Source of the DNA: Yuukianura sp. NJ FZ-2021
Taxonomy: Eukaryota
DNA: 64,000 nucleotides
Assembly: GCA_046563655.1 (NCBI GenBank)
Contig: CM102283.1
Coordinates: 7,378,001-7,442,000 of the forward strand
Direction of reading: 5' to 3'
Shown here: positions 7,626-55,535 of the stretch, in pieces
How the letters are laid out: each line of letters begins with the position of its first letter
Numbering within the stretch: position 1 is the stretch's first letter
The notes under the pieces: generated by a model
What the model saw: the letters and a program-made list of their open reading frames with translations, nothing else
Told to the model about the DNA's origin: nothing
Databases searched by the model: none
Translations under genes and position numbers: made by a program

Positions 7626-10600
7626 TCAATCGTTTCTGGAGTGATGTTGTGGAGCATGTCCTCCAGGATGACTAGGAACAAAAATTAAGTCCGCATTTTC
7701 TTGAATCTGACTCGTAAAACTTCCGTCTCGGTGATGACGGGGTTCGGAAGCTTCAATACTTCGAAAAGCACAAAAATAATTAAAATTAAAATTAAAAACA
7801 ATTAAAATTTTCATTTTCATTGTTTTGAACATTTTTTGTTTGATTTGTTTTAAAAACATACTCTGCAGGAATTTGTCGAAGTGAAATTGAGCTTGAGGAA
7901 TGTTGGTGATGCGACGGAAAGCAAGAAGAGACGGGTGGAAGTGGCTGCATATCGGCTGGAATGATTCCAGAAACACGCAGCGCATTCTCAATCATCCCGA
8001 CGGAATTGGCTCCGCCCATGTGATGCTGTCCATGCTGCTGAATCCCTTTAAGTCCCCCTAAAAATTCAAATTTTCTTCAAAAACCAAAAAAGGAAACGAC
8101 TTCAAAATTTCAATTTCTCAAAAAAGTTTTTCAAACTAACTTGGAAGAGGAGCCGTAATGAATCCAGGGTGTGGGTGACCCATTGGTGGCGGGGACGCCG
8201 GACTACCACTCATGATTGGATACGACTGTTTACGTTCTAGTTGCGTACTGACATGCATGTGCTGCGGCATTCCTTTCATATCGGGGGGACTTCCCCCGCC
8301 TCCATTTGCCCCCTGATGCATCCCCATCGACCCCGGACTTTTTGGCTTTCTTTTTCTCGTCTGGATGCCTTCCTTCTTCATCGTCTTGGGACGAGAAACC
8401 TGAAAGTGGGAAAATTCAAAATTTTTAATTTTGAAAATTTCTGATGTCACCCATTTCGAAACCCAATTCTAGAAAATCATTTGGAGTGAAAATCCTTGAA
8501 ACCTAGGCTAACGTTAGCTCAATATTTTTAATTTGGAAAAGTGTTTTTTCCAGAAGGTTATTTTGAAATCCGAAATGCGAGTAATAAAAGAGGGGAAGTT
8601 TGATGAAAGCAACCTCTGGTTTTTGCAGGTTTATGTTTCAGAGGGAAGTGGAGTGCATTGGGTCGTTAAGATAAGTTTAGTAGAGAGTCTTCATCAACCT
8701 TAGTGTATGTGATTGTATTTTGTTCATAAAAGGAGAGTAGAGTAAACTAAAACAAAAGGAAATTAAAAAAAACTAACCCCGTGAAGTTTGAAGTAGAGGC
8801 CGCAGGCGTTGCAGACCGGGTCACCCTGATTATTTCGGCGCCAAAGCGTCGTTGTCGTCGTTTCACAGTTGGAACATCGCATTCCTTGACGACGACTCGT
8901 GCCCTGGAATGACACAAAATTCCATTTACAAATCAATTTATTACGTTCCAAAACACAGATTACAAATTTCTCCAAATTGGCCAACGTCACGCCAACTTTA
9001 ACAAATTTTCAAAAGACAAATTCCAAATTTTTAAACAAAATCAAGAAGAAAGTGACTTAAAACAAAGCAAAACTTGAAATCTGTAAAAAGCCAAGGAAAG
9101 GAAGAAATTCTGCTTCAAAAATTCAGCTCGTGCGATCGACTTTCCAAACAAGCTTGTCTCTGCGATCGCAGCTAGCCTGCAGCTTGTTAGAGAAACTGTT
9201 GACCAGCTTGGTCTAACATGTTGACCGCTCACTCTAAAGTGCTAACCGCTAAGTCTAGCGTGTTGACAACTAAGTCTGGAGTGTTGTCCGGTATGTCTAA
9301 AGTTGGGAGCACTATGTTTTCGCGGGAAATTTTGAAAAGTACTTACAGCAGCTGAGACCCTCTTGGTCTGATTTCTGTTGAGGGGTCGATTCATTCCGTT
9401 TGTTCTGTTATAGAGACCACAAGCATTACATAAATAATGACCCGTCTCATCTCTTCGCCACAAAGGAGTATTATGAGCTCCACAATTAACGCACTCTTTA
9501 GGATCCTGCCCATAGTATGGGTCATTCTCCGAAATGACTGTCCATCCACCACTTCCTGGAACCCCTGGCAAGAGAGGGCCGCCTCCATGATGTGGTCCAA
9601 CGTAGTTTCCAGAAGGTCCACTGTTGCTATAGTGATACTGGCCATGTGCTGGAGGTGACCCTTCATTCCCACCATGCAGGTCACTCAGCATCGGAGGATG
9701 AAGCTGCTGATGCGGAGAGCCGCTGCCACCGCTGCCATAGTGGGCTTCACTCCAAACCTTTTCCAAAAAGCAAAAATTTTAGCTTGTCGAACATTTGAAG
9801 CTAAAAATTTCAAAATTATACTTCGTTAGCAGTTCTGCCAGAAATAGCATTCGGCGGAATCCCTGCTGAGCCGTAGTAGTTTTGCAAGTAGGTCAAACTG
9901 CCTGGTCCCTGCGACCCTGACCCCGCGTAACCCGCGGGGATACTTGCGTAGTAGCCTTTACCTCCACTGCTCCCTTCTTCCTTGACGCCTTGAAAAAAAG
10001 AGAGACTTAAGGCTCATGGAGTGAATTCGGAGGGAACTTTTGAAAAGTTAATGATTCCATTGACTAATCTAATCTGAGGAACAGAATTAGAGGATCATAA
10101 AATGAGATGAGGCGAGACTCGGTGTGACTTGGATCTGTTGGAGGGTACTTAAGGGGTACTTACCGAGGGTGACATAGGGTTGTTCATGGTGTTGGTGTTG
10201 GTGATGAGAGTCTCCTGTGCTGGAAGTACTTCGACCACTCGGACTACTGAAGTAGGCACTATCAGTTGACAGGCTCTTAGGGTAAAGGCCTCCTGGCTCC
10301 AGTCCTCCATGAACAACAGTCGGCTGGACGTGATGGCCATGGACAGCATCCACTACGTACTCCTGTGTAATAAGTTAGGTGGTTAGGTCTATGTATACAT
10401 TACATAATCAACAGGAGAAATCGAAAAAATGGATCTAAACACGCAATCTTATCCATCGCATCCGTCTTCATACCACTTCGACTCAGAACTCCCAGGTTTT
10501 ACTTTTACTTTTCAAAAAAAAGTAAAAGTTTTTTATTCTCTTTTTTTTATTCTTCTTAAGGGATACGCCCAAAATAGCTCCAAGGGCTAAGCACTTTCAC

Positions 10601-19147: not shown

Positions 19148-22380
<3,233 letters not shown>

Positions 22381-22969
22381 AACTAAATATTTCCAACATT
22401 CCACTTGAAAAAACCTAAGCCAAAAACTGCTGACGCAAGTGACACCCTCGTAACAGAGGGGTAAAAACCTTATTGTTTTTTAATTAACGTTGGGTGGGAC
22501 CACTTTTAACTTTTAACTTGAACATTAACTTTTAAACAAAGCTGTTACAGTTATCCCAAAAATAGCTCGTGGAACAGTTACAGTACTAACAAGGAAACCA
22601 CAAAATCAAAACCAGGGCAGACCGAAACCAACGTTGTTTCCTCCCTGGTTTTGGTTTTATCTTTAACTTTTGTTGGTTTTGTGCAATTTTTTTGTCACTT
22701 CTGGAAGTGCTCCACTTACAGGTTACACCAGCATGTTCATGTGACTAATAACAAAAATTTTTAATCAGTTTTTATCTAGTTTGTGTAAGGAAAATAGTGG
22801 ACTTACCTGGTGAGTATAGAATTGATCTGATCCAGTGGCATAACTCTTCATGGGGGATTCAACATGTGGAAAAATTTAAAATTGCGACTGTGAAGCCGAC
22901 CTTTGGATTTCTGAGAATAAGTTAGGGTGAAGGTCAGTGACCTTTGGCTTCTAGAGATGCCTCCACATC

Positions 22970-23069
22970 NNNNNNNNNNNNNNNNNNNNNNNNNNNNNNN
23001 NNNNNNNNNNNNNNNNNNNNNNNNNNNNNNNNNNNNNNNNNNNNNNNNNNNNNNNNNNNNNNNNNNNNN
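22970..23069. other. Assembly gap (100 N)
   Basis: Run of N characters. Confidence 1.
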
Positions 23070-27098: not shown

Positions 27099-28361
27099 TT
27101 ATTTTAAAAAGTTGGAGAAAAGTAAAAACAGTTGTTCCAGATGAGTAAATTGCATCCAATGCGGTGCTTTGTCGATGATTTCTAGTCTATAGAATTTGAA
27201 AAAAAAAACCAATAGCTACTAAATCAAATAATTTTTGAAAATGTACATTTCGAAAACTTGGTTTTCATTTTTTGATGCTGTAAACTGTTTTCAAGTGTTT
27301 TTAATTTTGTATTTACATACCTGGATGCTTTAATGTGTTCATGGAGATGATGCGCTTGCGCAACAGGTCCAAGATCATCATCACTTCCCGCCACAATAAG
27401 CGTGGGACATTTGATTTTTTCAAATTTTTTGACCCACTGGGCCTTGTCTTGGTTGAAATGGTCTCGACCAATCATGTCAGCCCACAAGCGCCAAGTTTTC
27501 TCAAATTCTTCGTGGGTCATTCCGTGTCCTTCGACTTGTTCTTCCAGAAACTTCGGATCCATTGTTTTTACGTCGCTATGCTCTTCAACAACGAAATCCA
27601 AAAACAATTTAAATTTTGGTGCTCAAAATTTTTGAAATCACAGGCTTACTGAGATGTACTGGAAGGTGGTCATCTTCAAACAAATCCCAAGTACCCCACA
27701 CTATTAATTTTTGAACCAACTCTGGGTACTTGACTGTCAGTTGAATTGCAACTTGACCTCCAGCACTCCATCCCATGAGGATCCACTTGTCATGTCCAAG
27801 GTGCTAAAAATTTTAGTTATTATTTATTATAATTATTTTTTATAACAATTAATGTTAATTCGTATTAATCAGAATGAAGAAAATACCTTTAGTAACTGGA
27901 CACCCATCTCAACTTCAGCGTCAAAGGAAATGTCACTGTCTTTGCGTGGCGGATTTCTACTCAAGAAATAACCTTCAAGGGCAGTCAAATATTAAAATTT
28001 CAGTGTAATTACTCTAATTACTTGTAATTCAAAATGTAATTACTTTAGTCTCAATTACCTGGTGGATCCCATGTATAAACGGTGTACTTGTTACCACCAT
28101 CAGAACTTCCTAGTCGTTCCAACAAACCTCCTGAGCTATATCGCATCGAACCTGATTTCCACAATTTCAGGCACAGAAAAATTGGTTTTAAAAAGTAAAA
28201 CTGAAATTTTGAAAAACAAAATACGCACTTATAAGAGACTTACCCAGGAGTCCGGGAAAACAGAAAATCGGAGTGGGTCCTGACCCCAGCTTGACATAGC
28301 AAACATTGTAGTCTCCAATTTTAACTTTTTTGGAGAATTCTAGCATTGGTTCTTTGTCCAT
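27099..28361 (-). CDS. Alpha/beta hydrolase, valacyclovir hydrolase (BPHL)-like, copy A
   Basis: GSGPTPIFCFPGLLG, DPPGYFLSR, nucleophile elbow MGWSAGG, KCPTLIVAGSDD, catalytic His in KAPHW. Confidence 0.82.
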
Positions 28362-28915: not shown

Positions 28916-30123
28916 TCAGTTCAGAAACTCTAAAACGTGGGCGTACATCTCTTCGGCATGTGTCTGCTGCATAAAATGTTGGGCTCCCTCCAGTATTTTT
29001 AGTCTAACATTAAAAAAAATTAATAAAATAAATTATTTCATAAAAACGAAAAATAATTTGGAAAATAATTTGGAAATTACTCCGCATTTTTGATATATTG
29101 GTGGAGGTACTGCGATTGGGAAAGTGCCGCCAAGCGGTCGTCGCTTCCAGCGATAATCAGTGTTGGGCACTTCAAATTTTCAAATTTTTGCTTCCACTGA
29201 TTCCTGTCTTTGTTGAAATGTTCCCGCTGAATCATGTCCATCCACTTGTGCCAACAAGCTTCAAAGTCTGTGAAGCTCAAACCATGTTTCTCAAGTCGGA
29301 TGTTGAGCATCTCTGGATCTCCTGATCTGAGGTCACGGTGGTCTACAAAGGTCAAAAATCACAAGACAGTGTCAAACACAAAGTTGGTTTTGGCGGAAAC
29401 GTTGTTATTTTTGGGAGTCATACGAAGATGAGTTATGAGGTGATCATCATCAAACAAATCCCAAGCTCCCCAAATAATAAGCTTTTGAACCATCTCCGGA
29501 TATTTCATGGCAAGTTTCATCGCCGACTGACTTCCGGCACTGTAGCCTAAAATGATCCACTCGGATTTGGAAGGTTCGAGATGCTAAGACAAAAGAAAAA
29601 TCAAAAATACAACAACAAAAAAGTTTAGGTCAAAGGTCAGACACAGACTTTCATCAACTGAATGCCCAGTTCCATGTCAAAGTCAAAAGAAATGTCAGCG
29701 TCTTTTCGAAGTGTAGGTCGACTCAAGAAATAGCCTGCGTAAGTTAAAACAATTTTAAATTTTGAATTTGATTTTTGAAAATTTTGAAAATTTGAAAAAT
29801 TGAAGCTAACCCGGTGGATCCCAACTGTACAAAGTGTACTTTTGTCCATTCTGAGTGTTTCCAATTTTTGTGGCAATTTCTTCGCATGAATGTCTCAGAG
29901 ACCCTGTTCCCATTTCAAATTTAATAAAATGTATTGCATTTTAAAAATATGAAAAATTACGAGCTCAAATTTGAAAAATTTTGAATTTAATTTTACCAAG
30001 TAGTCCTGGGAAAGCAAAAATCGGTGTAGGTCCTGACCCAAGCTTCAAGTAAGTAATTTTGTAATCTCCAATGTCAACTGCATGTAAAAATTCATACAAA
30101 GGCTCTTTCGTGTTATTCTCCAT
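28916..30123 (-). CDS. Alpha/beta hydrolase, BPHL-like, copy B (tandem paralog)
   Basis: GSGPTPIFAFPGLLG, DPPGYFLSR, LGYSAGS, KCPTLIIAGSDD, GAQHF; intron positions largely shared with copy A. Confidence 0.82.
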
Positions 30124-30487
30124 TGTTTTTTTTGTGAAAAAAAATCTTTTTTTAAGGTTGTCAAAATTTCTAAGAATTGAAGAAGCTGTGACTACCAACA
30201 AACTGATACTACTTGAAAGTACTATCAGTTCGTTCGCGTAAAATCTTGAAATTTTGAAGCTAAATTTAGCTTCAAATTAGCTGCGGATTTCAAAATACAA
30301 AGTACAAAGGCTATTTCAAATCCTTTAGTCATACGGTAAACTGATGAATGCCGTTACGCATGTTGCTGGCTGAAAATTACTAGCTATATGTTTTGTAAGT
30401 TTCGGTTTCAAAATTTATTTTTAATTGCGTCAGACAGCGAATTTCGTTGATGAAAGTTTTTTAACATTACAAAAATTACAGAAAAAT

Positions 30488-32404
30488 TTACACAGCGACT
30501 TCACCGTGTCCATTTCGAAGTTTCGGCGTTGGAACTATGGATCCTTTCAAGGTCATTTCAATCGAACTGTCTTCAATAAATCCAGCATTGGCTGCACTCG
30601 GATACTGCACATGCGCAGCAGCATTGCACGCGCATGAGCATCTACTCACTTTGAGATCTTCGATGTGCTGGTACATTGACTCCCCTAACTCCGCTTTGTC
30701 CAATCCAATTTCCTCGTTTTTGTCTGTAACTCGCAAAGCCAGTCCAGGGATCTTGTCAATTGTAAATGCCAAAATCAGAGTGACAACAAATGCCCAAGCG
30801 AATCCTGCGCATGTGTCGATGATCTGCAAGTACATTTGTTCCCAATGGCCGTCCAGCCATCCTCCCTTGATCTCTGTTCCATCAACTCCCGCTACTTCTT
30901 TTTCGGCAAATACTGCCGTTAATAGATTCCCGACGATTCCACCGACACCGTGAACACAGAAGACGTCAAAGGCGTCGTCAATGCGCAAGTACTTTTTGCA
31001 AGAGAGACTGAGATTGCAGGTCATTGAGCCCACGATGCCAAAGACCATACTGGATGCTGGTGAGATGTAACCACTGGCGGGAGTAACTGCTACTAGGCCA
31101 CAAACGGCTCCACAGCAGAATCCAAGTGCTGAGAATTTCCGCGGTTTTATTTTGACGTAGTCAAGCAAAGCCCATGTAAGTCCACCGACTGATGCTGATA
31201 GATTTGTTGTAACGAAAACGACGACTGCGCGGTAGTTTGGTGAAAGTCCGGAACCAGCGTTGGCCACTAACCACCCAAACCTTAACAAAAATTAACTTAT
31301 TTTTCTTATTCTGAAATTTTTGAGAAGCAAAATGCGAGTTGAAGTTGATACACTTGTTTGAATGTAACGAACTTACCAAATAAAACTACACCCAAGTATG
31401 ACCTGTTTCAAAATTTAGTTTGTTAGGGTTTTAATTTTACTTTTTTTTCGAATTCAAATTTGAATTTTTTTTTTGACAATCATTACGTGCGTCATGTTAT
31501 GCGGTGGTTTGTCTGTTGGATCTTGACGTTTCCCAAGTACTAAAGCGTAGGCCAACGCCGCAGCTCCCGTTGAAATATGAACTGGCGTCCCGCCGCCAAA
31601 ATCCAAACCTGCAAAGAATCGAGTAATTTTTTATATGATTTTGAAAATTTTCATTTTAATTCAAAAATTGTCAAATTTCAAGTTCTTACCGCCTTCTACG
31701 TAGAGCCAGCCATTAATATTCCTGAAAACGTGTTAACAAAACCATTCAATTTAGAAATGCCTGAAAAAATGGAACTTTCCCGCCAAAATATTTTGTATAC
31801 TTTACCAGGTCCAGTAAGTAAGAAAGTCAAAGACAAAAGTTGACCAGAAGAAAATGAAGACTACTGCTGGAAGGAGACGGGCCCTTTCGCTAAGGGCTCC
31901 CAAGATGATTGTAGGTGTAATGCAGGCAAACAGGCAGTACCAAATGGAAACCAGCAGCGCGGGAACTTTTGGATTCGAAATTGCCGGAGAATCGCCAATG
32001 TTCCTCAGGAAGATATGATCCAGATTGCCAATGAACGGACCTCCAGTGTTGCTCAAACACAAGGAGTAGCCAACCAAGTACCACTATAAAGGAATCACAA
32101 CAATTAACACTTGAATTAATCAGTAATTAGTAAATTAGTAATTAGTTAAATAATTGTTAATTAGAATTACCTGGATCGACACTACTGCAACAGAGTAGAA
32201 ACAAAGAATGGTCAGAATGAGTGAACTTTTGTTAGGTGCGAGGCCATTGTAGAAAAATCCAACGCCCGGGACCATGAGCCACGTGATTGCAGTACAAGCC
32301 AGAAGCCATGTCACATCTCCTGGATTGTACTCGTGATATTTCGGCGTGGTGGATTGGAGCGTCGAATTTTCAAAATTCACGGCGCGAAAAGTAGTGTCTT
32401 CCAT
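30488..32404 (-). CDS. Ammonium transporter of Amt/MEP type (fungal MEP-like), 6 exons
   Basis: PGDVTW...WLMVPGVGFFYNGL, FACITP...GALSERARLLP, YWTWNINGWL, GLDFGGGTPVHIS, WFGWLVANAGS, GAVCGLVAVTPASGY, DDAFDVFCVHGVGG, IKGGWLDGHWEQM, GLDKAELGESMY. Microexons at 31690-31721 and 31377-31402. Confidence 0.92.
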
Positions 32405-34014
32405 GATTTCCACTAGACGACTAAAAATACGACAAGTTTTAAGAATCGATGTAGTTGTTACGCAACATGCAACATTTTTCTAAGCAGTTGACCTTCATTG
32501 CACGAGGGAAAATAATTAACGTAACAAGGTTTAGCAATTCTTGGTAATGGGGGATGATGGGTCAGGCATGATCTTGCCATTAATTTTTTGTTTCAATTTC
32601 AGGGTCAAGTTTTGAAACTTTTTTCTTCTTTTGTTGAGGTAGCACTGTAAACTAAAGATGCATTTTTAGTACATGTTATAGTCATTGTTCCATGATTTAT
32701 ACAAATTTTATTATTAGCTTCTGCATCCTAATATTTTAGTAACTTACTTACTCTATTTTAAGTTTTAAAACTTGTTCCACTACATACTTTTTGTTAGCTT
32801 CGAAAAATTCTGCAATTTAAAAAAAAGGTATTAATTCTAACTTAATTGAAAACAGGTTAAGCAATTTTTTCCAAAAATTGGACTCGTGTGACTTTTTTGG
32901 GAGCTCATTTTAACTAGATTCAGACTTTTTTTAAAATTTACATTTCCTTCAGACTTATTGTGTCCAAAAATAATTTTTGAAAAAAATTCTAATTAATTTT
33001 AAAAGAAGTTATTTCAGGATGGGTGTGTCCGTTTCCTATTTACCTTGGCGTGTTATATTTTTGCCTTATAGCGTGCATTATGCATGTCAAAAATTTTGTC
33101 ACGAAGTTGGCATAAAAAGACGACGAAAAAATGAAAACTTTTCCCAGGAAAACTTTTTCATTGCGTTCGGACTGAAAGAGGAATTCATTTAGAATGAAAT
33201 GTTAAACAAAAATTTGGGGCGTTTTGAAATTTTTCATACTTCAAGATGTTCCTTTAATAAATTTTGCACTTTATTTTGCAAATTTTGAAAGATTCAAAAG
33301 AATTCAAATTAGAAACGTCTCCACTTGGAGTTGATTGATATCATTGGAAATTCCATTCTGAGAATCATAAACTTCGCTTGTGATGATGATGACGTAGCAC
33401 TTGAATCGCCCCCGCCAAACTTTAAACTTGGAAAGAACGCTGATCATTACACTTGCAAAAACATGCATACATCATCACCTCCGATTCGCTTAACTATTTT
33501 TTTCTTTCAGTTTACTGCAGATTCTCGTTTTGTAAAACTTTAGACAACTCTAAAGACAAGATGCCTTTGTTTTATTTTCAGATTATCCCAATTTTTTAAG
33601 AATTTGACTCGTGTTTCATCGTTTCCAAAGTATTTTGCTTAATAAGCCAAGGCTAAACCCCAACTTTATAACTTCGTATAAGAGATTCCGACTTCTCACT
33701 TCCCAATCGGTGTCATCCTTTCCTAAATTTTAAAAATAGATTTTGATCTGAACAGGATAAGAAGATTTGGAGTATTTTTAGAACTTACTGCACGGAGCAG
33801 GAACTTTCTCGGATGGAACGGGGAGGACACAGTCAGTGGACGGAATTCCACAAGTCTCGAATGTTCACACTTTCAAACAATTCCTCCATTTTATTTTGTA
33901 CCCACACGTCATTCTCAACTTAATTGTTCTTCTACGTCTTAATTCTACTTTGATTACTTTCAACAGTTAAGTTCAATTAGAGTTAACTCAGCAGTGTTTC
34001 AGGTTCACAACGAA

Positions 34015-37902
<3,888 letters not shown>

Positions 37903-43826: not shown

Positions 43827-46800
43827 ATGGACTCTGTTCAAGAAGACTGCTTGAGCGCTGCTACTGTTAGTAGTATGCGGGCACAACGGGTGGGGATCGA
43901 CTGCTCTCCGTTGTCACCCAGTTCGATTCCAGGAGGGGGCCACAACTCTCCTGTCGAATCGTCGTCAACTGTGGCCACTGCGGATGATTTGCAAGACCAA
44001 ACTGAAGACGATATCCAGAATCCCACGTCCCCTGCTATCCTCGTCCAGATCCCCAAAATCTCTCCAGTCATCATTCTGTCAAGTAGTCCGCACAATAACA
44101 TGAGTGTCAGCGCTGGTCTCGGCACTACGCTTGACCCCAACTCATGTTCCGCAGAGTCCGAATCCGATTCGTCATCAGACTCCGCACTCCATCACTCTCT
44201 CCATATCCACAACAATAGTTTGGCTCATACGAGTGTCATTGTTGAGAATGGGTCACACTTTGCCCTTGGCGACCACCATCCAATCCCCCTGCATCATAAT
44301 AATAACAATGGAAATCTCCAGTTTCGCAAACCGGAAGTGTACCAGTACTTGCTGAGCAATATGGGAGGACTGGCAGAGGAACATCGTGGTCACCATGGAA
44401 ACGACGAGGATGATCTAGTGATGCAAGATATCAAGCCGAATCCACTGGACTTGGTGGCACATCATGAGCAATCGCATCACTACCACTCTGGTGGACTCTG
44501 CAACAACTCGTCTGCGCAGACGCAGCAACATCAACAACAAAATCTTCATCACAACAATTCGCCTAACGGGTCCTCCAATCACCCGCACCACCACTCAGAA
44601 CATCCTCATCACCAACCGGCGCATGCTCACAACGGAGGATCTTCTTCTAGTAACAGGCAAGCATTTACGCAATTATTTTCGAAAACCTACAAAATTTTGA
44701 AAAAACGAAAATAGATTGCAGCTAGCTTCTTAGTCATGTGATTGTGCAAAGTTTAAGTAAAAGATTCTGGAAATTTTAAACTTTGTACATGGCCGCAAGC
44801 AACGCGGTCAGGTTTGAACTTTGACCAAACTTTTTTTTTTGTTCGTATTTTTGAAAACTTTTGTAAAGGAAAGTTTATGATTCAACTTTTCTTAAAAGTT
44901 GTTTTGTTTTTTCTAAAAATGGACTTTTGGGGTAATATGAGAAACAAAAAATGTTGTTGGACTTGAGTCATACCGGTCATGGTTGCCTCAAAGTTGCGTT
45001 GTTCTGACTCACTTTCAAACAAGAATTTTCGTTTTTGGGAAACTTCTTTTGAAAAACTATTATTTTGAGAAAAGTTTGTTTACTTTTGGATGAGTCACTG
45101 TATATTTTTGGTTTTTGTGTGTTTAGGAGCGGTAGTTCGGAGGATGGACATCACATTTACAGCAGCCTGGAGCCCCACCCCCAAGGGCCCTACAACTCTC
45201 TCATCTACACCACCTACAATCTGGGTGGACATGGACATCAGGACCTCCCTTCAACCCCCTGGCAAAACTCTGGCTCATCCGCAGGTATAACTAAAAATAA
45301 AAGTGGCCCTTAAGTACCCCTCTGTCATTAGGACACTCACTTCAAGTCTTAATCGTCTTTTAATTTAACTTTTTTTCAGATTTGGAAGGTTATAAGCAGC
45401 CCAACTTCTTTCCGCAGAACTCACTTCCATCTATCTTCGGCAGAAATCGGTTCCAACCTTATCCCAACAGTCGTAAGTTCTTGACACGCAGAAATACGCG
45501 CTGTTTTTCAAAATTTTGTGAAAAAAAGTTCTGATTTTTAAGTAATTTGTCGAAGCTAGCTTGAAATTTTGGCAGTGGTGTTACAAATATTGTTGTTTTT
45601 TGTTACAGAATATCACTCTGATGGGTTTTCGCAGTCCGGAACGTGGCCAGGGTACAATTTGGACTTGGCCAACTTCAATGTAATTGGAGCTGGTGGTGGG
45701 ACGGGTGGGAACAGTCATAGCAGCTCCACTTCAGCTTCCGGTGGGGCCTTATCCACCAACCACGCCTTCAATTCCGCTGGAAATGTGAGCAGCTCAAGAG
45801 GAGGCGGAGTTTTGTCGGGACTCATCAAAGGCCAATCCCCACATCTCACCGGTAAGCTTACGTTTTTACATTAACTTTTATAACATGAATTCATGAATTC
45901 TATAGGCGGCAAAGTTAGTTTTTAAATTAATCAAAATTTTAATTCCATATTTCGAAATTTTGAATCTCTTGGTTAGACTTTTGTATTTGACTCGTGCGGC
46001 ACGAGTCGTGCCGCAACTGCAACGATAGGCTTTTATCTCGTTACACGTCAAATGGCGCTGTATTTAAGTGGATAAGAGATTAACCACGTTATAGAAACCA
46101 AGTTACAAGAATTAGTTAGGCTTAAGGACTTTGACACTTTGGTATAAGTGTTAGTTATCACTTGTCACTTTACCAGAATTGAATTCCAATTGCCTTGTTT
46201 TTGGCTTTTGTTATCACCTCAAATTAGGTTTACAGTAAGTTCGTAATTGTAATTAGTTAGGGAATGCTTGGCCACGGTTTGCCGCCGCAGAAATGAGATA
46301 AAGGTGACCAGTTTTTTGAAAAGAACCGCCGCCGCCTTGTGGTCCATTTAAATATGGTTCAATTAATCACTCACACTTTGGGTTTTGGGTTAGAGAATCC
46401 GTCTTATCTAAAGTATTGGCAAGCATTGGCAATTTACAATTCCTAATTTACAATTGATCGTTAATTTGTTAGGGCAATTTAAATGGAGAGAGGAAAATTA
46501 CTCCGATTTGTTTAGAATTTGAATTTTGGCGGCGGGGGATGAGGGATGTTTTCTGCTTAAGATTTTTGTAAGCTTTGGGCTGTTCAATTGTGCAAATTTT
46601 GTGCTGGAGTTAACTTTTGATGTATTTAGAAGTTCGGATGTCTGAGGATTAGATGATGGTTTGAATTTAATGGCGGATCATATTGCATTGTTAAAGTTGA
46701 AATGGATGTTTAATTGTTTATTGACTTAATGGTAATGGGTTTCTATTGTTTCTGACAAGTTCAGGTTCAAGGTTCTGGTTAACTTTCTTGTGTTCTTAAG

Positions 46801-49800
46801 TTGAGGCGATTAGTAATCAAAGGATTTCAGTATTTTCTGAATACGAATTTGACTATTGTCAATTTGAATTTGTTAAAATCATAAGCAAAAGTTTTGCAAT
46901 TTCGAAAATAGTTGAGTAAAAATTGAGTTGTTGGTTTCAGTAGCTCATTCGTTAGAATTGAAGCAGGATTTTTTGAAATTACGTAAGTATGAACAAGTTT
47001 AAATTTTGTTTTTGGAAGTTGCTTTTTCTACGCAAATTGAAAAAAAAAAATTTTTTTTGGTAGTTGCGTTTTGGTATCAGTCATTTTTTAACGGAAATAA
47101 CATATTTTTGAAGATTAGTTTCAAATTTTATGAATAGACACAATAGACAGTAATAGTTGACCGTGAATTTCAATTTGAAATTTTCAAATTGCATTTTGAA
47201 GTAGTGAAATGTGAAATGACAATGTGGCATTTTTATTTGTTGAATGTCATAACCATTGCGGTAGTTTCAAAATGGACTTTTGGCGGGCGTTTTTGAAAAC
47301 ATTGAAGTTGGAATAGTAAGAGAAATGCCGAGTCAGCAGAATTTAATTGGGTAAAAGTTGTTTTTAGCTTAAGCTTTTTTTTGAAGCTCAAGATGTTTAT
47401 GCAATGGTTTGCGTTTTGTTTGGCCGTGGTGTCATTTTTACTACTGGACTTGTGTAAACTGAAAAAATTGGACTTGGCAAATTTTCGTGTCCGGGAAATA
47501 AGAATGTAATTAGAGTTTAACCATAAGTTTAAATTTCAATGGAGACACAAACTCTGTCCTTTGTTAATGCTCCAAGTGTGAGAATAATTTTGTGGTTTTC
47601 AAAACTGTAGGCCATTTTCAGTTTCATTTTTTGAAGCTGGACTTTTAGCAGGGGCTTTTGGACGTTAGGGGAGGTTGAAGTTGTAGAAGAAGGAAAATGT
47701 ATAAGTAACTAAACTTAAAGTTGGAAGATCATTAAGTTTTAATTAGTTTCATCATTATCGCCACCAGCTTCTTTTTCTGGGGGAGGATGTTAAGTTAGCA
47801 TAGTGTTTTTCAGAGGACAGTGTTAGGAAAGAGATGCATAGACTTTGTAATTTTTTGGTTTCTTGGGAATATTTTTACATGAAACGTTAGGTTAAACCTA
47901 ACCTTAAAAGATGAAGATGAGTTTAAAAGTGGATGAGATCTTCCAGGAAGTTATGGTTTCTTTGGACTAAATTTTTTTTAGTCAGGAGATGCTCAATTCA
48001 GAAGAGTAGCATTGGATTTTGAAAGTTTCTGAAGAAGTTATCTTGAGGAGCGGATTGAGGTTTTGAAAAGGCGGAGTTCAGAGTTGACGTAGTTCTCAGA
48101 ATTTGAAAAAAAAAGAGTCAAATTCAATATTAAACTTAAGCGTTTGTGTTTTTGGTTGATCTGTTTCAACAGAATTTGTAAGCAAAGAAACCTAACTTTT
48201 AGTTTGGTAGAATTAAAAGTTGAAAGTTTTTACATGGAGTTAAAGTGAGACTCATGGACGATTGGAGGATGTTGTCTTGTCTGTCGATGGTATAAATAAA
48301 ACGGATATGATTCCAATTCTAAAGTTGACCACTAAAGTTCTAATCTGAGTCTTTCAAGTCCCTTGAGTATATTTTTCGTTTCTAAAAACTCATTTCGGAC
48401 CAAAATGAAAAAAAAAGCGGAAATGAGCATGACTTTTGTTTTTGGTCGTAACATGGATCATGAGAACAGAAATGCTTCATTTAAAAAAAACTATAAGAAA
48501 GAAAATACTAAACAGTCACATTCGAAGTTTTTTTTTGATGAAGCTCTTCCGACGTTAACCTAATTTGAAATGTTAGTTTTGAAGTTTCAGCAGTGTTCTA
48601 ATGCCACAAAATTCAAAATGACTAAACTTCAAAATTTATGACGCAAAGTAACGTGAGTGATGAAAAATGTTTTGAACATTGAATTGAATTGACGTAGCGG
48701 TTTTTGCAATTCAGCAATTTTGAACAGGCGTGCTCTTCACACTCGAGAGTTACTTTTCCAACACATAAACTTTAAAAACTTTAACCTATACGCCACTAAC
48801 CTACATTTAATTTCAATTTTGTAAACATTCAAGTTTTGAGTTGGACAACACATTACAAGTCGAGTAGGGCGGTAAAGTTAACACTTTCAGCATTGCAAAT
48901 TGCAAGTTGCAATTTCTCCGAAGTTAGTTTGTTTTTAAATTCGAAACTTTTGATGTTTTTTTTTGCGAATAGATCTTGTTTCTGCAATTTGAACTTTTTT
49001 TTCGAACTTTGAAAGCAGATCAGTTGAGGTCAAACCGGTTGGTGTTATCTGCAAGTGACAACAGTTGAGGAAGGGAGGAAATATTTGAACGCCTTTTGTT
49101 TGAAATGCTGTAAAGATACATTTTGTAATGTTAGACTTTCATGAGAAAATGTTAGGATTTGGGAAATTGTTGTGGAAGTGTGGATAAGAGTGTGTCGTAA
49201 TCTGATCTGTTGTTGATCTTTGGATCTTCATCTATCTTCTTCAAACTATTCTTCATTTGTCTTTATCTTTCACAAACAGTCCACTGCACTTTCCGTCAAT
49301 TCCGTCGTTCAACTTCTGTTTGACGCCTCATCTTTTTTCAAAAGACAAAAGAATGTTAGGATTCAACTGTCCTAATGTCTTGTCATTTGGTTACTTTTAC
49401 TGGAAAAACAAAATGCAGTTGACATGTTTTCAAACTTTAGGATTTTAGGATTAAGGATTCACAAAGGATTTCGTATTTTAGAGGGAAAAGGGAATTTCGA
49501 AAAAATTGAAATTTGAAAGTGACGGAGCAAGTTTTGAGATTTTAGAAATTTGAAATATACTGAACTTTTCTTAATTACTATGTTGGTATATTTTGAAAGG
49601 GGAAATTTTGAACTATATTTTAATTACTAATTGAAATACTTTGGAAATGCTAACTTTTATTTGTTAATGTTAAATTAAAATGTTGAAATTTGAATTGTGC
49701 CGCCTCCCAGCAGTGGAGATGAGCTACGAGGAGTGGGCAGGCGCAGAGTCAAGGGAATGTGTCAACTGCGGCGCGGTGTCAACACCGCTGTGGCGCCGTG

Positions 49801-51706
49801 ACGGAACTGGTCACTACCTCTGTAATGCTTGTGGCCTCTACCACAAAATGAACGGAATGAATCGGCCTCTTATAAAACAACCCAAACGAACAGTGAGAGA
49901 AATCAAAATTTCAGAAAATTTTCACTTTTGTCATTTTTTAAAATTTAATTTGCTTTCGTCTTGTCGTTTTGACCGTGTTCTTTGTTTTATCCTGTATTTT
50001 TTTTTATCCCACTCCTCTATTTTTTTTTTAAATTTTGCTTACTGCACAAAATGCAAAATCATTTTTTGGCAAACCTTGCCCTGAGGGAGGGATTTTGACA
50101 TTGGCGGGATTTTTTTTTGTGGGAAAGTTCGGTTTTACGTAGGTTTTATTGAATTTTTATATGATTTTTTTTTGGTGAAAAAAAGATTTTGTCGGATTGG
50201 ATAATAAACAGTTGATTATTTTTGGTTTTGATTTTGATTTTTTAAAGAGCATGAACATTTTTGTAGTTCCAATTTTTTTTTACTTTCAAAATTACGAAAT
50301 TACAAAAACATAATAGAATCCGTCGTAAATCCGTCTTTATTGTTTTTGTTATGCGCAGGTTCAGGGACTTACGGTCAGAAACAACGAGACGGATTTGCGA
50401 CGCAGACGCAACATAAACAAAGACTGGTACGTGAATTTCATTTTTTCATCCATTTTTTTCTGGTTTTTGATTGGTGTGGTATTATTTATCAAATTTTAAA
50501 TAAAAAATTGCATGTCCTTTTCAAATTTTTTCCTAAAAAGTATCTTTTAGTATTCGCAATTTTGAAAAATTTGTATTCCGGTAATGATGTTGTGACATTT
50601 AGATAAAATTTCCTGTTTCACATTTTATGATTTTATGGGTTCATTGACCTCCTTTACTTAAAAATTTGAAATCTTCCGCCTATTTTTGTTTCTGCATGGC
50701 TTTCAACATGTTTTGCTTTTTTCATGTAAATTGGTTTTTACCTAATGGCTTTTGGTTTGTGTTGTCTTTGTGGCTTCCTGTCATTTACCAAAATGTGCTT
50801 GGAAATGTTTTATGTAAAAAGTACAAAAAAAAGTGAACTAATTTGTAAATTTTTTGATGATTCAAGAGCGCAACTCGTCGTTTAGGCCTCATGTGTTCAA
50901 ATTGTATGACGGAGAGAACATCTTTGTGGCGCAGAAATCAGTTGGGTGAACCAGTGTGCAATGCATGCGGACTTTACTACAAACTGCATGGCGTCGCACG
51001 ACCCCTGACGATGAAAAAAGATTCGATTCAAACTAGGAAACGGAAACCGAAAAATAATAGCAGCAATGGACCAGCTTCGAAGAGTGGTTCGAAGAATCAG
51101 CAAGAATCAGCAGCAGCTCAAGCGCAAGCGCAGAGTCAAAATCCGAATAGTTACGCTGCACTTTCTGGAGTCATGGCTGCAGCTCATCATGGCGGTAACT
51201 CTGGTCCGCCTACCGTATCATCCTCTGCTACCGGTAAAAAAATTAAATTCAGGAGTTAGTTACAGTCGAGCCTCTCATTGCGCAACACGTTCTGATTGGT
51301 TGGTTTAAATAAACGTTTTCGCGCCTACGGTGCGGCTTCAAATCAAACACTTCTGACATATTAGACCACCTATAACGTTTTTCGTTTTGTTAAAAAGTAT
51401 AATTCCTCCAAAAAAGTTAAGGTTTATGGTTTTCCGCCGTTAGGAAAAATTGAACAAAAGTTGAGTAATGAGAAGCTCGACTGTAGTTAAGTCTAACAAT
51501 TCAACAATTATTGGAAATTTTGAGTTTTGTTGTATGATTTTTTTTTTTTAGATTTGCTCAAAAGTGTTTTGACTGCTGGAACTGTAGGGAATCTCAATAA
51601 TCATGTTGGAAGTTTGAACTTGATGAAGACGCCTCTGACACTCTCATCACTTGGAGAGCAAGGTTACAAATCCAATCCTCAAATTTACTACACCCACGCG
51701 ACCTAA
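43827..51706 (+). CDS. srp: Serpent-like GATA factor, two-finger isoform
   Basis: N-finger exon 49711-49892 [47 protein letters not shown]-finger exon 50867-51233 [13 protein letters not shown]...TSLWRRN...[17 protein letters not shown] (IKQP, TSLWRR and KKDSIQ are srp-type). Upstream exons 43827-44656, 45127-45284, about 45380-45472 and about 45609-45851; last exon 51552-51706. Confidence 0.82.
50359..50426 (+). CDS. srp: Alternative fingerless srp exon, mutually exclusive with the N-finger exon
   Basis: gcgcag|...|gtacgt, 68 nt, phase 1 to 0 exactly like the N-finger exon (182 nt); encodes (G)[22 protein letters not shown]. Confidence 0.7.
51263..51483. mobile_element. Tc1/mariner/pogo-type MITE (221 bp) in the last srp intron
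   Basis: TIRs CAGTCGAGCCTCTCATT and AATGAGAAGCTCGACTG (16/17 match), flanked by TA on both sides; no coding capacity. Confidence 0.8.
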
Positions 51707-53336
51707 TTTATTTTTTGGTAACAGGATTAATCAAGTCTTGTTTTAGGATTGAACTTGTGTAGATTTTTGGTTTTTAAGGACGAAGTTAGCAACTGAAATT
51801 GAAAGTAAAGCTTAGGGTAAAACTTTCGCTGGTATAATATTCATCATCGGCAGTTGTTTGTTGCTACTTGAATGTTGAAAAGTTAAGTGTGAAATAATTT
51901 AGGTTAGAAATAGTAGGATTAGTTAGTTAATTTAGTTGTGAAAATTGTTAGCAATTAATTTAAGCCCGTTTGTGTGCTCTCTGATTCCAAGTGCTTGCAC
52001 TGGATGAAGGATCCACATGAGTCGAGTTCTGATTTCTGGAGTGCTGGACATGAGGTTCCCATTCCAGAATCTCTTAGTCCTTTTTGTGAAAAGTTGTACG
52101 TTATTATTAGTTAGCAGAATATTATTTACAAGTGACGAAGGAAATAACTAGATTTAGCTAATTACTTAATTTAAGAAAATGACGTTGTTCAAAATATGAT
52201 CTGATCAAATTTTGTTATAATGTTAAATTGAGCAAAAGTCCAAAGATACTGAAAAAAAGAGTGACACGGGTCTGCTAAGGTCCTTCAGGGGATGCTCAGC
52301 CTAAGCTCTTATAGTTAATTGTAATTAATTATATAATTGTAATTAGTTGCAAGTAATTAACAGTTGTAGTAGTTTGAAATTAGTGACCGAGGTTAGATTT
52401 TTATGAATTTGGACCTGAATTGAATTGTATGTAACAATTGTAAAAAGTTGAACCAAAATCCGCCCGTTGTGTCTCTTAAGGACTATTCAGGGTACTTCAA
52501 ATCGGATTTAAAGCTAAGACAAATCAGAGATCTAAAAAATCAGACTGGAGAGAATTATTTAAAAAATTAAGATCTAGTTTTATGGTAAAGTTGTTAAGAA
52601 TTCAGTAATTTAGAAATAATTAGTTTAGATTTATTTTAGTTTTGTTGGCGGCGTCAACCTGAGGATCTTCCTGTGTTTCGTCGTAAATATTGGTTTATAT
52701 TTTGACATCAATTAATTGTCATTCGTACTGAAAAGCTCATTAATTTAGTTTAATTATCCAAATTTAGTTAAAAGTGTAAAGTACAACTTTATTTTCAACA
52801 CGGAACGTAAAGAGTTCAAAACTATTATTCTCGACAGGTTAATCATTTGGCAGAAATAAAAACGAATAATTTTGAATAATTAATTGGGAGTTCTGGAATT
52901 GGAGTTAATTGTTAATCGCAATTTGTAATTGATTTATGTAATTTAAAAATTTGAAACAATTCGTTGGATATTTTTCAATTTTTAAATCAGTCTCATAGAA
53001 ATCGCGGGAACCAGAAAAAGTGCGGGAGAGCTGAATTCAAATTTTTTGTCCCGAATTTCTATTTTTTAGTAATTTTTTTTTTACATTGGTCTTTCCTTTC
53101 GTCTTTCTTTTCACTTTCCTCAATGAATCGTTCGAATTCATTAATTAAAAATTTATAGTTAATTAGTTTACTGATTTGATTAATCATAATCGGCACCCGT
53201 TGTAGCGTGGTTTAGATAACCTTTGAGGATCAGGATATTGCATTACTTGGTTGGTGGGATGTTCAAGGACGAACCCGACCACTGATGTCGCCGTGGGGAT
53301 CACTGGCTCTTGGCTCATCAGCGGTGGGATTGTGGG

Positions 53337-54513
53337 ATGGAGGTGTTCTGGAGCGTCGTTTGTGTAGGCAAGAAGTCAGAGTTACCGGAGGCACATGTTG
53401 ATTGGGTCAAGTATGTTGCTGGTGCTGGTTCTGGATTTCTTCAGGGTAAACCGATTTTTCATGATAACCCAAATATTAATGTGAAATGAAATGAACTGTA
53501 TTGAATATTTGCGTTTTGTAGTTGCCGTGCCGTACCCTATACACAAACTTATGTTTCGACAGGTACAAAGACAAGAACTTGCTAATTTTTCTAAAACGTA
53601 GAACACAATTGGACGATTTTGATTTCTAGATGTTTGATGGGGCTACAACGGCAAGAGCCTTCAGACAACTGCGAACAGAAGGTGTCTTCCTATTGTACCG
53701 TGGTATCATGCCTCCATTGCTGCAGAAGGCCATTTCCAATTCGATTATGTTTGGGAGTTATCATAGTTATGGCTCTGTTCTTAAGCAAACGTTTCCTCAA
53801 GGAAATGCCCAACTTCTTAAAAGCTTTGGAGCGTTTTTCGCTGGAGCATCGGAAGCGTTCCTTTTAGTACCGTTCGAAAGAATTCAAACCTTGTTACTGG
53901 TGAGTTGTTAATTACACTTAACATTTTGGATAGCACATGATATTCGACTGGGTACTTTTTATTTTCTAGGATAAGAAATACAACACGGAGTTCAAGAACA
54001 CGCGCCATACCTTTTATTACATTCATAAGAATCACGGCTTGACCGAATTTTACCGTGGAGGATCTACCATTTTAATACGAAACTGCTTATCCACAATTTT
54101 GTTCTTCGCTGCAAAAGAGAAACTAGAATCGTTATTTCCAAATTTCAACTCCGTTGGTCCAGATTTACTACTCGACTTTATCGCGTAAGTAATTAATGCT
54201 TGTTTTGAATTTAAGAAGTGAGAGTTTATGTTAAAATGCAAGTATTTTGTGTAGTGGTGGACTGATTGGCGGTACAATAAGTTCCTCCGTGTCATATCCA
54301 TTGAATGTCGTGAAGACCCGAATGCAAAGTCAAGTTGGTGGATCATTTGAGTCTCCTTGGAAGGTCTTTCAAATCATTTTTAATGAAAGGGATCGGCAGT
54401 GGCGAAAGATTTTTAGAGGAGTTCATTTAAATTTTACTAGAACTATTATATCATGGGGAATTGTTAACTCTTCCTACGAATTGATTAGCAGTATTCTCCG
54501 CCGTGATTCATGA
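53337..54513 (+). CDS. SLC25A51: Mitochondrial carrier, SLC25A51/MCART1-like (NAD+ carrier family)
   Basis: YVAGAGSG...YPIHKLMFRQ, LYRGIMPPLLQK...IMFG, PFERIQTLL, YPLNVVKTRMQSQVGG, FRGVHLNFTR...WGIVNSSYE. The start codon is uncertain. Confidence 0.85.
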
Positions 54514-55307: not shown

Positions 55308-55535
55308 GGGGTAAGGTAGAGGGTGTAGGCTGTAACACCCTATTGTAACACCCCATTGTAACACCCTATTGTAACACCCGACCTCGGACATGTTTGCTTT
55401 GTTCGTTTCCCGCGCCGAAGGCGCGGTGTTAGGTTTTTTAAAGTTCGTAATACTGATTACGTCTGTAGGTTAGGTGGGGTGTTACAATGGGGTGTTACAA
55501 TAGGGTGTTACAGCCTACACCCTCTACCTTACTCC
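55308..55535. mobile_element. Foldback/MITE-like element with about 60-bp TIRs containing 12-bp subrepeats
   Basis: GTAAGGTAGAGGGTGTAGGC(TGTAACACCCYAT)n at 55311 is mirrored perfectly, ending at 55532; central hairpin CGCGCCGAAGGCGCG; target-site duplication unclear. Confidence 0.78.

Follow-up and report, generated by a model that had tools for sequence, protein, structure and literature searches.

How does a gene for a fungal-type (MEP) ammonium transporter come to lie in the genome of an animal? Animals in general encode transporters of the AMT and Rh clades, which are the usual animal proteins for handling ammonia, and fungi encode MEP-clade transporters only, the MEP-clade genes being regarded as a fungal and prokaryotic type (McDonald & Ward 2016; PMC4814505, in the portion of the paper drawn on here). 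The gene lies in a 64,000-nucleotide stretch of DNA from Yuukianura sp. NJ FZ-2021, analysed as a whole and referred to below as the window, and belongs, intact, to the nuclear genome of a springtail-like hexapod.

An intact six-exon gene on the minus strand

The gene occupies positions 30488-32404 of the window on the minus strand, from the start codon (ATG, 32404-32402) to the stop codon (TAA, 30490-30488), and its six exons join into a coding sequence of 1485 nt (GC 0.48) that encodes 494 amino acids with 0 internal stops. The five introns (87, 84, 81, 84 and 96 nt) are all bounded by GT and AG and have a GC content of 0.20-0.31, as expected from the five AT-rich introns that an earlier note on this DNA had described, and all six motifs quoted in that note are present in the spliced product, with WTWN..GW spanning intron 2. 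The features are:

Exon 1, 32171..32404, minus strand: 78 codons; N-terminus, TM1 and the ICL1 region, with RxK read as PNK; PF00909 E 7.6e-05, 22.0 bits, below the 23.2-bit cut-off
Intron 1, 32084..32170, minus strand: 87 nt, GT..AG, phase 0, GC 0.20
Exon 2, 31806..32083, minus strand: 278 nt; region of the outer gate Phe and ER motif; PF00909 E 4.9e-11
Intron 2, 31722..31805, minus strand: 84 nt, GT..AG, phase 2, GC 0.31
Exon 3, 31690..31721, minus strand: micro-exon of 32 nt, collinear with orthologues
Intron 3, 31609..31689, minus strand: 81 nt, GT..AG, phase 1, GC 0.21
Exon 4, 31487..31608, minus strand: 122 nt; carries the counterparts of Asp160 and His168, with AmtB Ala162 replaced by Gly; PF00909 E 3.5e-08
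Intron 4, 31403..31486, minus strand: 84 nt, GT..AG, phase 0, GC 0.20
Exon 5, 31377..31402, minus strand: micro-exon of 26 nt, collinear with orthologues
Intron 5, 31281..31376, minus strand: 96 nt, GT..AG, phase 2, GC 0.27
Exon 6 and stop, 30488..31280, minus strand: 263 codons; Trp212, F215 replaced by Ala, Ser219, His318 equivalent, ExxGxD and a variable C-terminal tail; PF00909 E 1.4e-54, 185.8 bits
Candidate poly(A) signals, 30414..30425, minus strand: ATTAAA starting at 30425 and AATAAA starting at 30419, 63-69 nt past the stop

Support for both micro-exons (32 and 26 nt) comes from the product, which aligns collinearly and without indels to springtail orthologues. In a relative known from a fragment (P0369), which groups with the window protein at 70% identity, homology breaks exactly at intron 5 of the window gene, suggesting that the two genes share this intron position. 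The window holds no second copy of the gene, since 0 of 15 tblastn HSPs fell outside 30400-32500.

The product is a MEP-type member of the transporter family

The 494-residue product is a member of the Amt/Mep/Rh family (Pfam PF00909), with exons 2, 4 and 6 each scoring above the cut-off of 23.2 bits, and the family match is far beyond chance. Comparison with the PDB returned Candida albicans Mep2 (E 7e-57) and Saccharomyces cerevisiae Mep2 (7e-49) as the best solved relatives, followed more weakly by Archaeoglobus fulgidus Amt-1 (6e-32) and E. coli AmtB (1e-25). Exon 6 is ~50% identical to the Mep2 structures, an identity from which a Mep2-like fold, putatively trimeric with 11 transmembrane helices, can be predicted. 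The earlier note had classed the gene as MEP type, and this assignment is upheld both by the higher scores of the Mep2 structures over Amt-1 and AmtB and by the trees described below, which place the gene among fungal MEPs. Animal Amt (AMT clade) and Rh proteins are of the same superfamily and form a separate clade according to the sections of the literature consulted (PMC4814505). A protein-atlas search yielded generic Amt clusters and kinase clusters only.

The locus as a probable part of the host genome

That the gene sits between bona fide animal genes, as the earlier note had it, is borne out with one refinement. The neighbouring PHTF gene, the one neighbour with a taxonomic placement, served as a control and finds springtail proteins as its three best matches and then insects and Daphnia, a pattern of vertical descent, but a scaffold gap of 100 N separates it from the transporter gene. 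The neighbours on the same gap-free stretch, comprising Ig-domain, dual GATA-finger, kinase and C2H2 ORFs, are animal-like by their Pfam domains only. The base composition of the transporter gene resembles that of its surroundings (GC3 0.49 versus 0.36-0.48 in neighbouring ORFs), as does its codon usage (RSCU correlation 0.54 versus 0.38-0.63 among the neighbours). In the trimmed 59-row alignment the Allacma protein is 67% identical to the window protein over its full length and no fungal protein comes near this value, local identity of exon 6 to fungi reaching up to 59% among the matches listed.

The 100-N gap is the one feature of the locus that would suit contamination or misassembly, whereby the gene would stem from a co-sequenced fungus or another eukaryote. 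We give this explanation a negligible probability, since the codon usage and composition are those of the neighbouring ORFs, animal-type ORFs lie on the same gap-free stretch, Mortierellomycota proteins reach a mean identity of 51.8% compared with the 67% of Allacma, and the orthologues of Folsomia, O. dallaii and Bradysia reside on contigs 1.2-15 Mb long. A fungal contaminant was rejected on these grounds.

Springtails and a fungus gnat carry the gene

The database matches listed consist of 120 proteins of at least 462 amino acids and 120 of 144-461 amino acids (240 in total), with fungi taking up much of the space; other animals could have weaker homologues that lie beyond these 240. Among the 120 longer matches listed, 9 are from springtails, 74 are fungal, 37 carry no taxon name and 0 are from other animals, while the named animals among the 120 shorter ones are two Bradysia and two springtail entries, all other named rows being fungi. 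The named animals among the 240 matches listed are therefore the springtails Allacma, Orchesella and Folsomia and the fungus gnat Bradysia only, and none of the 240 is an animal AMT or Rh protein. In the order of the matches listed, springtails come first, then Mortierellomycota and Glomeromycota and then other fungi. The broad presence across arthropods that the earlier note had named as evidence against horizontal transfer is not seen among these 240 matches, nor is any grouping with animal Amt proteins, the note's other such condition.

The family is present in every springtail proteome that the searches reached. A recent, species-specific transfer is rejected because the gene is common to springtail orders; the putative transfer is an old one that every springtail lineage sampled has in common, not one specific to the present genome.

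Animal copies adjoin the MEPs of Mortierellomycota

The main maximum-likelihood tree was computed from 59 rows and 464 columns with IQ-TREE under LG+F+G4 (supports are given as SH-aLRT/UFBoot). A scan of contigs had found five prokaryote loci, to which two from Methanoculleus were added; the outgroup comprised L001, L002, L003 and the Methanoculleus paralogues L007 and L008, with L004 and L005 dropped and L006 being a duplicate of L001. A larger FastTree set held 198 rows, and the 78 of 150 representatives shorter than 330 amino acids that were left out of it were screened by BLAST instead. All trees were built without animal AMT and Rh sequences.

All animal sequences cluster together in a single clade (97.6/100), which divides into the three paralogue groups A (100/100), B (99.7/100) and C (100/100). 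The window gene belongs to group A, where it pairs with Allacma (93.7/99), and Bradysia coprophila has copies in A and B. No named fungal sequence lies inside the animal clade in the trees, and P0066 (in group C) is the only full-length match without a taxon name inside A, B or C. The phylogeny that the earlier note had proposed as a check, computed here without animal AMT and Rh, shows the animal copies next to the MEPs of Mortierellomycota (82.3/95), inside fungal MEPs in the 59-row tree. The same neighbours were recovered in a PMSF quick tree (animals 96, animals with Mortierellomycota 87) and in the 198-row FastTree (95). Identities follow the same order: the window protein averages 51.8% identity to Mortierellomycota, 46.3% to Dikarya and 32.9% to prokaryotes, and group B reaches 62.7% to Mortierellomycota, exceeding the animal-Dikarya and animal-Zoopagomycota values. 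The nearest non-animal relatives, among the matches listed and in the trees, are MEPs of Mucoromycota such as those of Mortierella alpina (P0016) and Rhizophagus irregularis (P0033).

An AU test of the topology with fungi monophyletic to the exclusion of animals gave a likelihood difference of 17.9 (p 0.096) under LG and 11.8 (p 0.093) under PMSF. In the constrained tree the long prokaryote root shifts to a position beside animals and Mortierellomycota, and since the constraint moves only this root, the nesting inside fungi is root-dependent and the non-rejection of animals outside fungi reflects the uncertainty of the prokaryote root. This result (p 0.09), together with the fact that Bradysia, a member of Insecta, has A as well as B, is what vertical inheritance can draw on, in which a MEP gene of the opisthokont ancestor would have been kept only by fungi, springtails and sciarid flies. 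Such a history is very improbable in our estimation: it would call for a very large number of separate losses, the 240 matches listed include no further named animal whereas the PHTF control finds many insects, and the affinity to Mortierellomycota holds without a root (UFBoot 95). Moreover, the 62.7% identity of group B to Mortierellomycota runs against it, as does the fact that the Bradysia copies stand no farther from the springtail copies than one springtail order from another.

We consider it likely instead that a MEP gene was transferred from a fungus to springtails in ancient times, was domesticated and neofunctionalised there and later moved between arthropods to Bradysia. A single MEP gene would have passed from a Mucoromycota fungus, nearest to today's Mortierellomycota, to the ancestor of crown springtails, where it would have taken on a composition like that of the host, gained short AT-rich introns and given rise by duplication to the paralogue groups A, B and C. 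Both the direction and the age of this transfer are read from the sequence relationships given above.

Probable passage of A and B to sciarid flies

Group A is represented in the database by entries P0001-P0006 and P0373, which come from springtails and Bradysia and are labelled 'ammonium transporter 1'; these are orthologues at 58-67% identity that share all the signature changes described below, and the window protein is at least 33% divergent from each of them. Bradysia-to-springtail identity is as high as that between springtail orders, and 12 fragments resembling Bradysia sequences cluster with Bradysia A in a single clade. Sciarid flies probably received their copies of A and B at a later time, by arthropod-to-arthropod transfer.

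The alternative is that springtails and sciarids, both of which eat fungi, each took up the genes from the same unsampled lineage of fungi, in which A-like and B-like paralogues already existed and the Ala gate would have arisen. Where Bradysia belongs within A and B is not fixed by the trees, and AU tests do not reject Bradysia A outside springtail A (p 0.19 and 0.29). Nevertheless, 0 of at least 74 named fungal matches listed fall inside A or B, as does no full-length match without a taxon name (P0066 alone is in C), the Ala state is restricted to group A (13/13) and the animal clade is monophyletic (97.6/100), and we regard independent acquisition as improbable, if somewhat less so than vertical descent.

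A remodelled gate in group A

Residue states were read from two anchors, exon 4 positions 1-29 aligning without gaps to AmtB 159-187 (placing D160 and H168) and exon 6 position 2 aligning to AmtB 211 (placing W212, A215 and S219). The twin histidines of the pore are present, one at the AmtB 168 position and the other aligned to CaMep2 His342 (residue named in the part of PMC4852598 used), and Asp160 and Ser219 of the recruitment site are both retained. The twin Phe gate (AmtB F107/F215) is incomplete: by motif alignment the outer Phe, which we take to be F107 in AmtB numbering, is retained, and the inner position is Ala. This Ala occurs in 13 of 13 group-A sequences, and outside group A the site is Phe in 281 of the 283 sequences that cover it. 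Further changes of group A are W/Y at 103-104 (with the 103-105 stretch altered), G162, L213 and V/I214 next to A215. The ExxGxD motif of the C-terminal region (as defined in the portion of PMC4852598 consulted) is present at the aligned position as EEIGLD. The RxK motif of intracellular loop 1 is altered, reading PNK in the window protein and PRK in Allacma, and R-x-K/R is kept in the group-A proteins of Orchesella and Folsomia, in groups B and C and in fungi. The PDB alignment stops near query residue 208 of exon 6, and the tail is variable among orthologues.

Compared with the Mep2 transceptors of C. albicans (5AEZ) and S. cerevisiae (5AEX), the window protein shares the twin His, the Trp-x-Trp recruitment region, Ser219, the ER motif, ExxGxD and the TM1 Tyr, but has Ala at the inner gate Phe, Gly at Ala162 and PNK at RxK. 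Its C-terminal tail is unrelated, with the autoinhibitory region and Npr1 site not recognisable by inspection, and unlike fungal Mep2 it is encoded in an animal genome by a gene with five introns. The Mucoromycota MEPs have a canonical GWFGFNGGS gate motif and LDFAGG, whereas the gate of the window protein is altered. E. coli AmtB has D160, H168, W212, S219 and the second His in alignment with the window protein, yet the match is only E 1e-25, F215 is replaced by Ala and A162 by Gly, and a GlnK-type regulation context is lacking.

In the history that we favour, group A would have undergone remodelling of the outer recruitment site and gate (F215 to Ala, A162 to Gly, 103-105 in AmtB numbering) while its conduction core, made up of Asp160, the twin histidines, Ser219 and the C-terminal ExxGxD, was retained. 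The protein may thus form a pore like that of Mep2 and carry ammonium or ammonia through a membrane, with gating or deprotonation probably altered, and could serve in nitrogen handling, by excretion or uptake. Classical transport by group A is not assured, because F215A inactivates E. coli AmtB, although AtAMT1;2 keeps full activity with the corresponding F271A change (both in the text of PMC6856177 that we drew on). The loss of the inner Phe with its AmtB precedent, PNK at RxK in the present species and a search of sequencing runs that listed none of RNA would also fit a decaying or non-transporting relic, for instance an incipient pseudogene or a protein that acts only as a sensor. A relic is nonetheless very unlikely, on a par with vertical inheritance: the frame is open across six exons with canonical splice sites, the remaining core residues are kept in group-A proteins 58-67% identical across springtail orders, and the plant F271A protein works (PMC6856177, same portion).

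A more specific reading, which we put forward tentatively and hold to be doubtful, is that group A is a natural 'open-gate' MEP. Loss of the inner Phe and rebuilding of the recruitment site would have turned a deprotonating NH3/H+ transporter into a faster, channel-like conduit for NH4+, or into one that carries some other small cation or amine, with a role in excretion; A and its canonical sister B would then have passed from a springtail lineage to the sciarid ancestor, A diversifying there. Springtails have no Malpighian tubules. On springtail ammonia excretion the literature search found nothing usable.

Relation to known transfers

Microbial and fungal genes have been fixed in springtails and soil-arthropod genes occur in Sciaridae, as in the springtail cases and the 'alien' P450 and terpene synthase genes of Bradysia, which follow the same pattern as the genes described here (PMC5490193, PMC12051294 and PMC11665903, in the text available); 87 candidates for horizontal transfer in Folsomia have Rhizophagus as best donor (PMC5490193, likewise). 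Ammonium transporters have 0 occurrences in the text searched of these three papers. No description of a springtail MEP family was found in the literature searched or in the Folsomia genome paper and two supplements, its HGT-tree file (Additional file 3), which might list these genes, aside.

If the transfer is real, a fungal MEP family retained by several springtail orders in three paralogue groups would add a membrane transporter, with a central nitrogen metabolite as its substrate, to the functional fungus-to-animal transfers, and would bear on nitrogen excretion or scavenging by springtails, which are abundant soil animals. Group A would constitute a natural experiment on the inner gate Phe, whose role is debated, a residue essential in AmtB and dispensable in AtAMT1;2 (PMC6856177, in the part used). 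Finally, the A and B copies of Bradysia would provide an extra, independent gene family for the proposed gene flow from springtails or mites to Sciaridae.

Gene structure and family of the transporter

The Amt/Mep/Rh gene, which we refer to as the transporter, is split into six exons, two of them micro-exons:

30488-32404, minus: transporter gene, ATG at 32404, TAA at 30490-30488
32404-32171, minus: exon 1
32083-31806, minus: exon 2
31721-31690, minus: exon 3 (micro-exon)
31608-31487, minus: exon 4
31402-31377, minus: exon 5 (micro-exon)
31280-30488, minus: exon 6

All five introns (87, 84, 81, 84 and 96 nt; phases 0, 2, 1, 0 and 2) are bounded by GT and AG and have a GC content of 0.20-0.31, in agreement with the five AT-rich introns of the earlier note, whose six quoted motifs are likewise all present. 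The spliced coding sequence (1485 nt, GC 0.48) encodes 494 residues, and ATTAAA and AATAAA lie 63-69 nt past the stop codon. The micro-exons are credible since the product is collinear with its orthologues, without indels, and, judging from the likeness of its C-terminal tail to that of the database match P0369, splicing probably does not use an extra candidate donor site inside exon 6. No second copy was found within the window.

Pfam PF00909 matches exon 6 (E 1.4e-54), with exons 2 and 4 also over the cut-off. In a search of all PDB sequences, exon 6 matched Mep2 of C. albicans (7.4e-57) and S. cerevisiae (7.3e-49), followed by A. fulgidus Amt-1 (6.3e-32) and E. coli AmtB (about 1e-25). Exons 2 and 4 gave the same ranking, so that the fungal Mep2 structures come first for all three exons and the initial reading as a fungal Mep-type protein holds. 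According to McDonald & Ward (2016, PMC4814505), fungi encode MEP-clade genes only and animals in general AMT and Rh.

Host and genomic neighbourhood

The genes around the transporter (window GC 0.381) include the following:

9245-9778, minus: GATA zinc-finger ORF
20740-22479, minus: PHTF (putative homeodomain transcription factor) gene, at least two exons, left of the gap
22970-23069: the only run of N (100 N)
27227-27622 and 29077-29358, minus: two ORFs with weak alpha/beta-hydrolase matches (E 0.003-0.007, under Pfam cut-offs)
about 29968-30126, minus: third short ORF, without Pfam match, beginning about 360 nt past the transporter stop
34112-37521, plus: protein kinase gene, oppositely oriented to the transporter and 1.7 kb away on its upstream side
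49674-50081 and 50861-51256, plus: GATA zinc-finger ORFs (Pfam)
57677-62540, plus: clustered C2H2 zinc-finger open exons, three of 343-448 codons and smaller ones

The three best database matches of PHTF are all from springtails (Orchesella dallaii 40%, Allacma fusca 36%, Folsomia candida 37%; E 1e-52 to 7e-48), followed by termites, stick insects, ants and Daphnia at 1e-22 or weaker, which indicates that the host is a springtail or a very close relative, distant from Orchesella, Allacma and Folsomia. The linkage of PHTF to the transporter rests on scaffolding, because the 100-N gap separates the two. The gap-free stretch that carries the transporter bears animal-type ORFs, identified by Pfam domains only (Ig-domain, protein kinase, dual GATA fingers, C2H2 cluster). 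The statement that the gene is flanked by animal genes thus stands as far as domain type goes, but the neighbour placed by taxon lies beyond the gap. In coding GC (0.48) and GC3 (0.49) the transporter lies near the top of the values for seven neighbouring ORFs (0.43-0.52 and 0.36-0.48), and its codon usage correlates with theirs at r 0.54, compared with 0.38-0.63 among the neighbours themselves.

The GATA pair on the plus strand looks like two fingers of a single animal-type GATA factor, and the ORFs downstream of the transporter may be a tandem hydrolase gene pair. The N-lobe exon of the kinase most resembles MARK/CAMK-type kinases in the PDB search, and the gene extends through a further open exon of 808 codons that holds no other domain. 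GC skew is positive throughout 46001-54000 (0.11-0.30, plus strand); no tandem array accounting for it was found, the sole repeat being a 13-bp one at 55331-55379.

Database relatives

Relatives were searched with exon 6 in two size classes (at least 462 aa, and 144-461 aa), the best 120 matches being listed in each. Those listed in the longer class comprise 9 springtail proteins (Allacma, two; O. cincta, one; O. dallaii, two; Folsomia, four), 74 fungal proteins, 37 without organism name and none from other animals. The six best are springtail proteins (54-64% identity); those of Mortierellomycota and Glomeromycota come next (55-59%). Among matches listed in the shorter class are two proteins of Bradysia coprophila, P0373 (61% identical; contig of 9.3 Mb) and P0391 (56% identical; contig of 15.2 Mb), and the springtail paralogues P0435 and P0483; the remaining named ones are exclusively fungal. 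In an all-against-all search of representatives, 182 clusters reached at least E 1e-30.

Our literature search found no description of MEP-type transporters in springtails or Sciaridae, which does not prove absence. The Folsomia genome paper names Rhizophagus as the best donor for 87 HGT candidates; 'ammoni' is absent from its available text, and 'ammonium' and PF00909 from two of its supplements (PMC5490193).

Phylogeny

All trees sample the MEP-type animal copies, their fungal and unnamed matches and prokaryote outgroups, with no animal AMT or Rh among the rows. In a FastTree analysis of 198 rows (the 120 listed matches of at least 462 aa, the 72 out of 150 representatives that reach 330 aa, the window protein and five prokaryote ORFs), all animal sequences group in a single clade whose sister is made up of 21 Mortierellomycota rows (support 95), and this pair lies within a Mucoromycota group (99), inside the fungal radiation. 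A reduced set of 59 rows and 464 columns (15 animal, 40 fungal, 4 prokaryote) gave SH-aLRT values of 96 for animals and 87 for animals plus Mortierellomycota under LG+C20 PMSF (IQ-TREE, quick search); values from the full LG+F+G4 search are tabulated below. In the Methanoculleus outgroup genome (L006-L008, G001 contig 9), three Amt genes lie within about 5 kb.

Table. Support for splits (SH-aLRT/UFBoot; full LG+F+G4 search, 59 rows)
Animals: 97.6/100
Animals + Mortierellomycota: 82.3/95
Animals + Mortierellomycota + Calcarisporiella: 96.5/90
Group A: 100/100
Group B: 99.7/100
Group C: 100/100
Window + Allacma: 93.7/99
Bradysia A + Entomobryomorpha A: 85.5/98

Forcing the fungi to be monophyletic cost 17.9 lnL under LG (p 0.096) and 11.8 under PMSF (p 0.093), and was not rejected by the AU test. 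The constrained tree places the animal groups as a basal grade beside Mortierellomycota, with the same unrooted neighbourhood; the sole change is the attachment point of the very long prokaryote branch, the root of fungal MEP being uncertain. The position beside Mortierellomycota, recovered by maximum likelihood, favours the horizontal transfer proposed in the earlier note, but fungal monophyly without the animals is compatible with the data. We consider the window gene most likely to be a fungal MEP, anciently acquired and domesticated.

Paralogue groups and Bradysia

The animal copies fall into group A (the window gene, Allacma two, O. cincta, O. dallaii, Folsomia two, Bradysia P0373), group B (O. 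dallaii, Folsomia two, Bradysia P0391) and group C (Folsomia, O. cincta, P0066). Likeness to fungi is greatest in group B, whose mean identity to Mortierellomycota is 62.7%; that of group A, which sits on a long stem (0.42-0.57), is 50.9%. Since group A spans a symphypleonan (Allacma) and entomobryomorphs, we infer that transfer and duplications predate the split of these orders.

Identity between Bradysia A and the springtail A proteins is 57-67%, a span also seen from one springtail order to another (58-67%), and Folsomia B2 is 73.7% identical to Bradysia B and 72.7% to O. dallaii B. Twelve fragments without organism name join Bradysia A in a clade supported at 95, one of four group A lineages whose mutual order the tree does not fix, and forcing Bradysia A outside springtail A was not rejected (AU p 0.19 and 0.29). 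[quoted passage not shown]

Folsomia P0005 (group A) and P0021 (group B) share the same longest contig figure (7,050,299), as do the Allacma group A copies P0001 and P0002 (21,545); either pair may be linked or tandem. P0370 (group A; 1138 bp for 317 aa) and P0066 (1589 bp for 473 aa) come from JGI contigs whose coding sequence is unbroken across the intron positions of the window gene. Both could be transcripts of environmental origin and would in that case give a hint that relatives express such genes.

Pore and gate residues

Exon 4 aligns without gaps to AmtB 159-187, and position 2 of exon 6 corresponds to AmtB 211, giving Trp212, Leu213, Val214, Ala215 and Ser219 in the window protein. 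Asp160, His168, Trp212 and Ser219 are thus common to both proteins, whereas Phe215 and Ala162 of E. coli AmtB are replaced by Ala and Gly. Among 399 Amt sequences, 296 cover site 215 (the other 103 are fragments without the motif), with Phe in 281, Ala in 13 and Leu in 2; all 13 Ala carriers belong to group A, as do 9 of the 11 sequences (out of 277) with Gly at 162.

F215A abolishes the activity of E. coli AmtB; with the corresponding F271A change, AtAMT1;2 keeps full activity but shows weaker N-isotope discrimination, read by the authors as partial NH4+ slippage (PMC6856177). The remodelled gate suggests altered kinetics or mechanism, and with the conduction core retained, movement of ammonium or ammonia is still the likeliest activity predicted from the residues. 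The protein may serve ammonia excretion or uptake. Springtails excrete ammonium and are not known to have Malpighian tubules.

Positions 103-105 read W-Y-C/G in group A versus Y/F-Q-G in the others; for residues 103-107 and 148 the AmtB numbers are putative and follow from motif alignment. Group A retains the ER motif, ExxGxD and the outer gate Phe, and the RxK motif is PNK in the window protein and PRK in Allacma.
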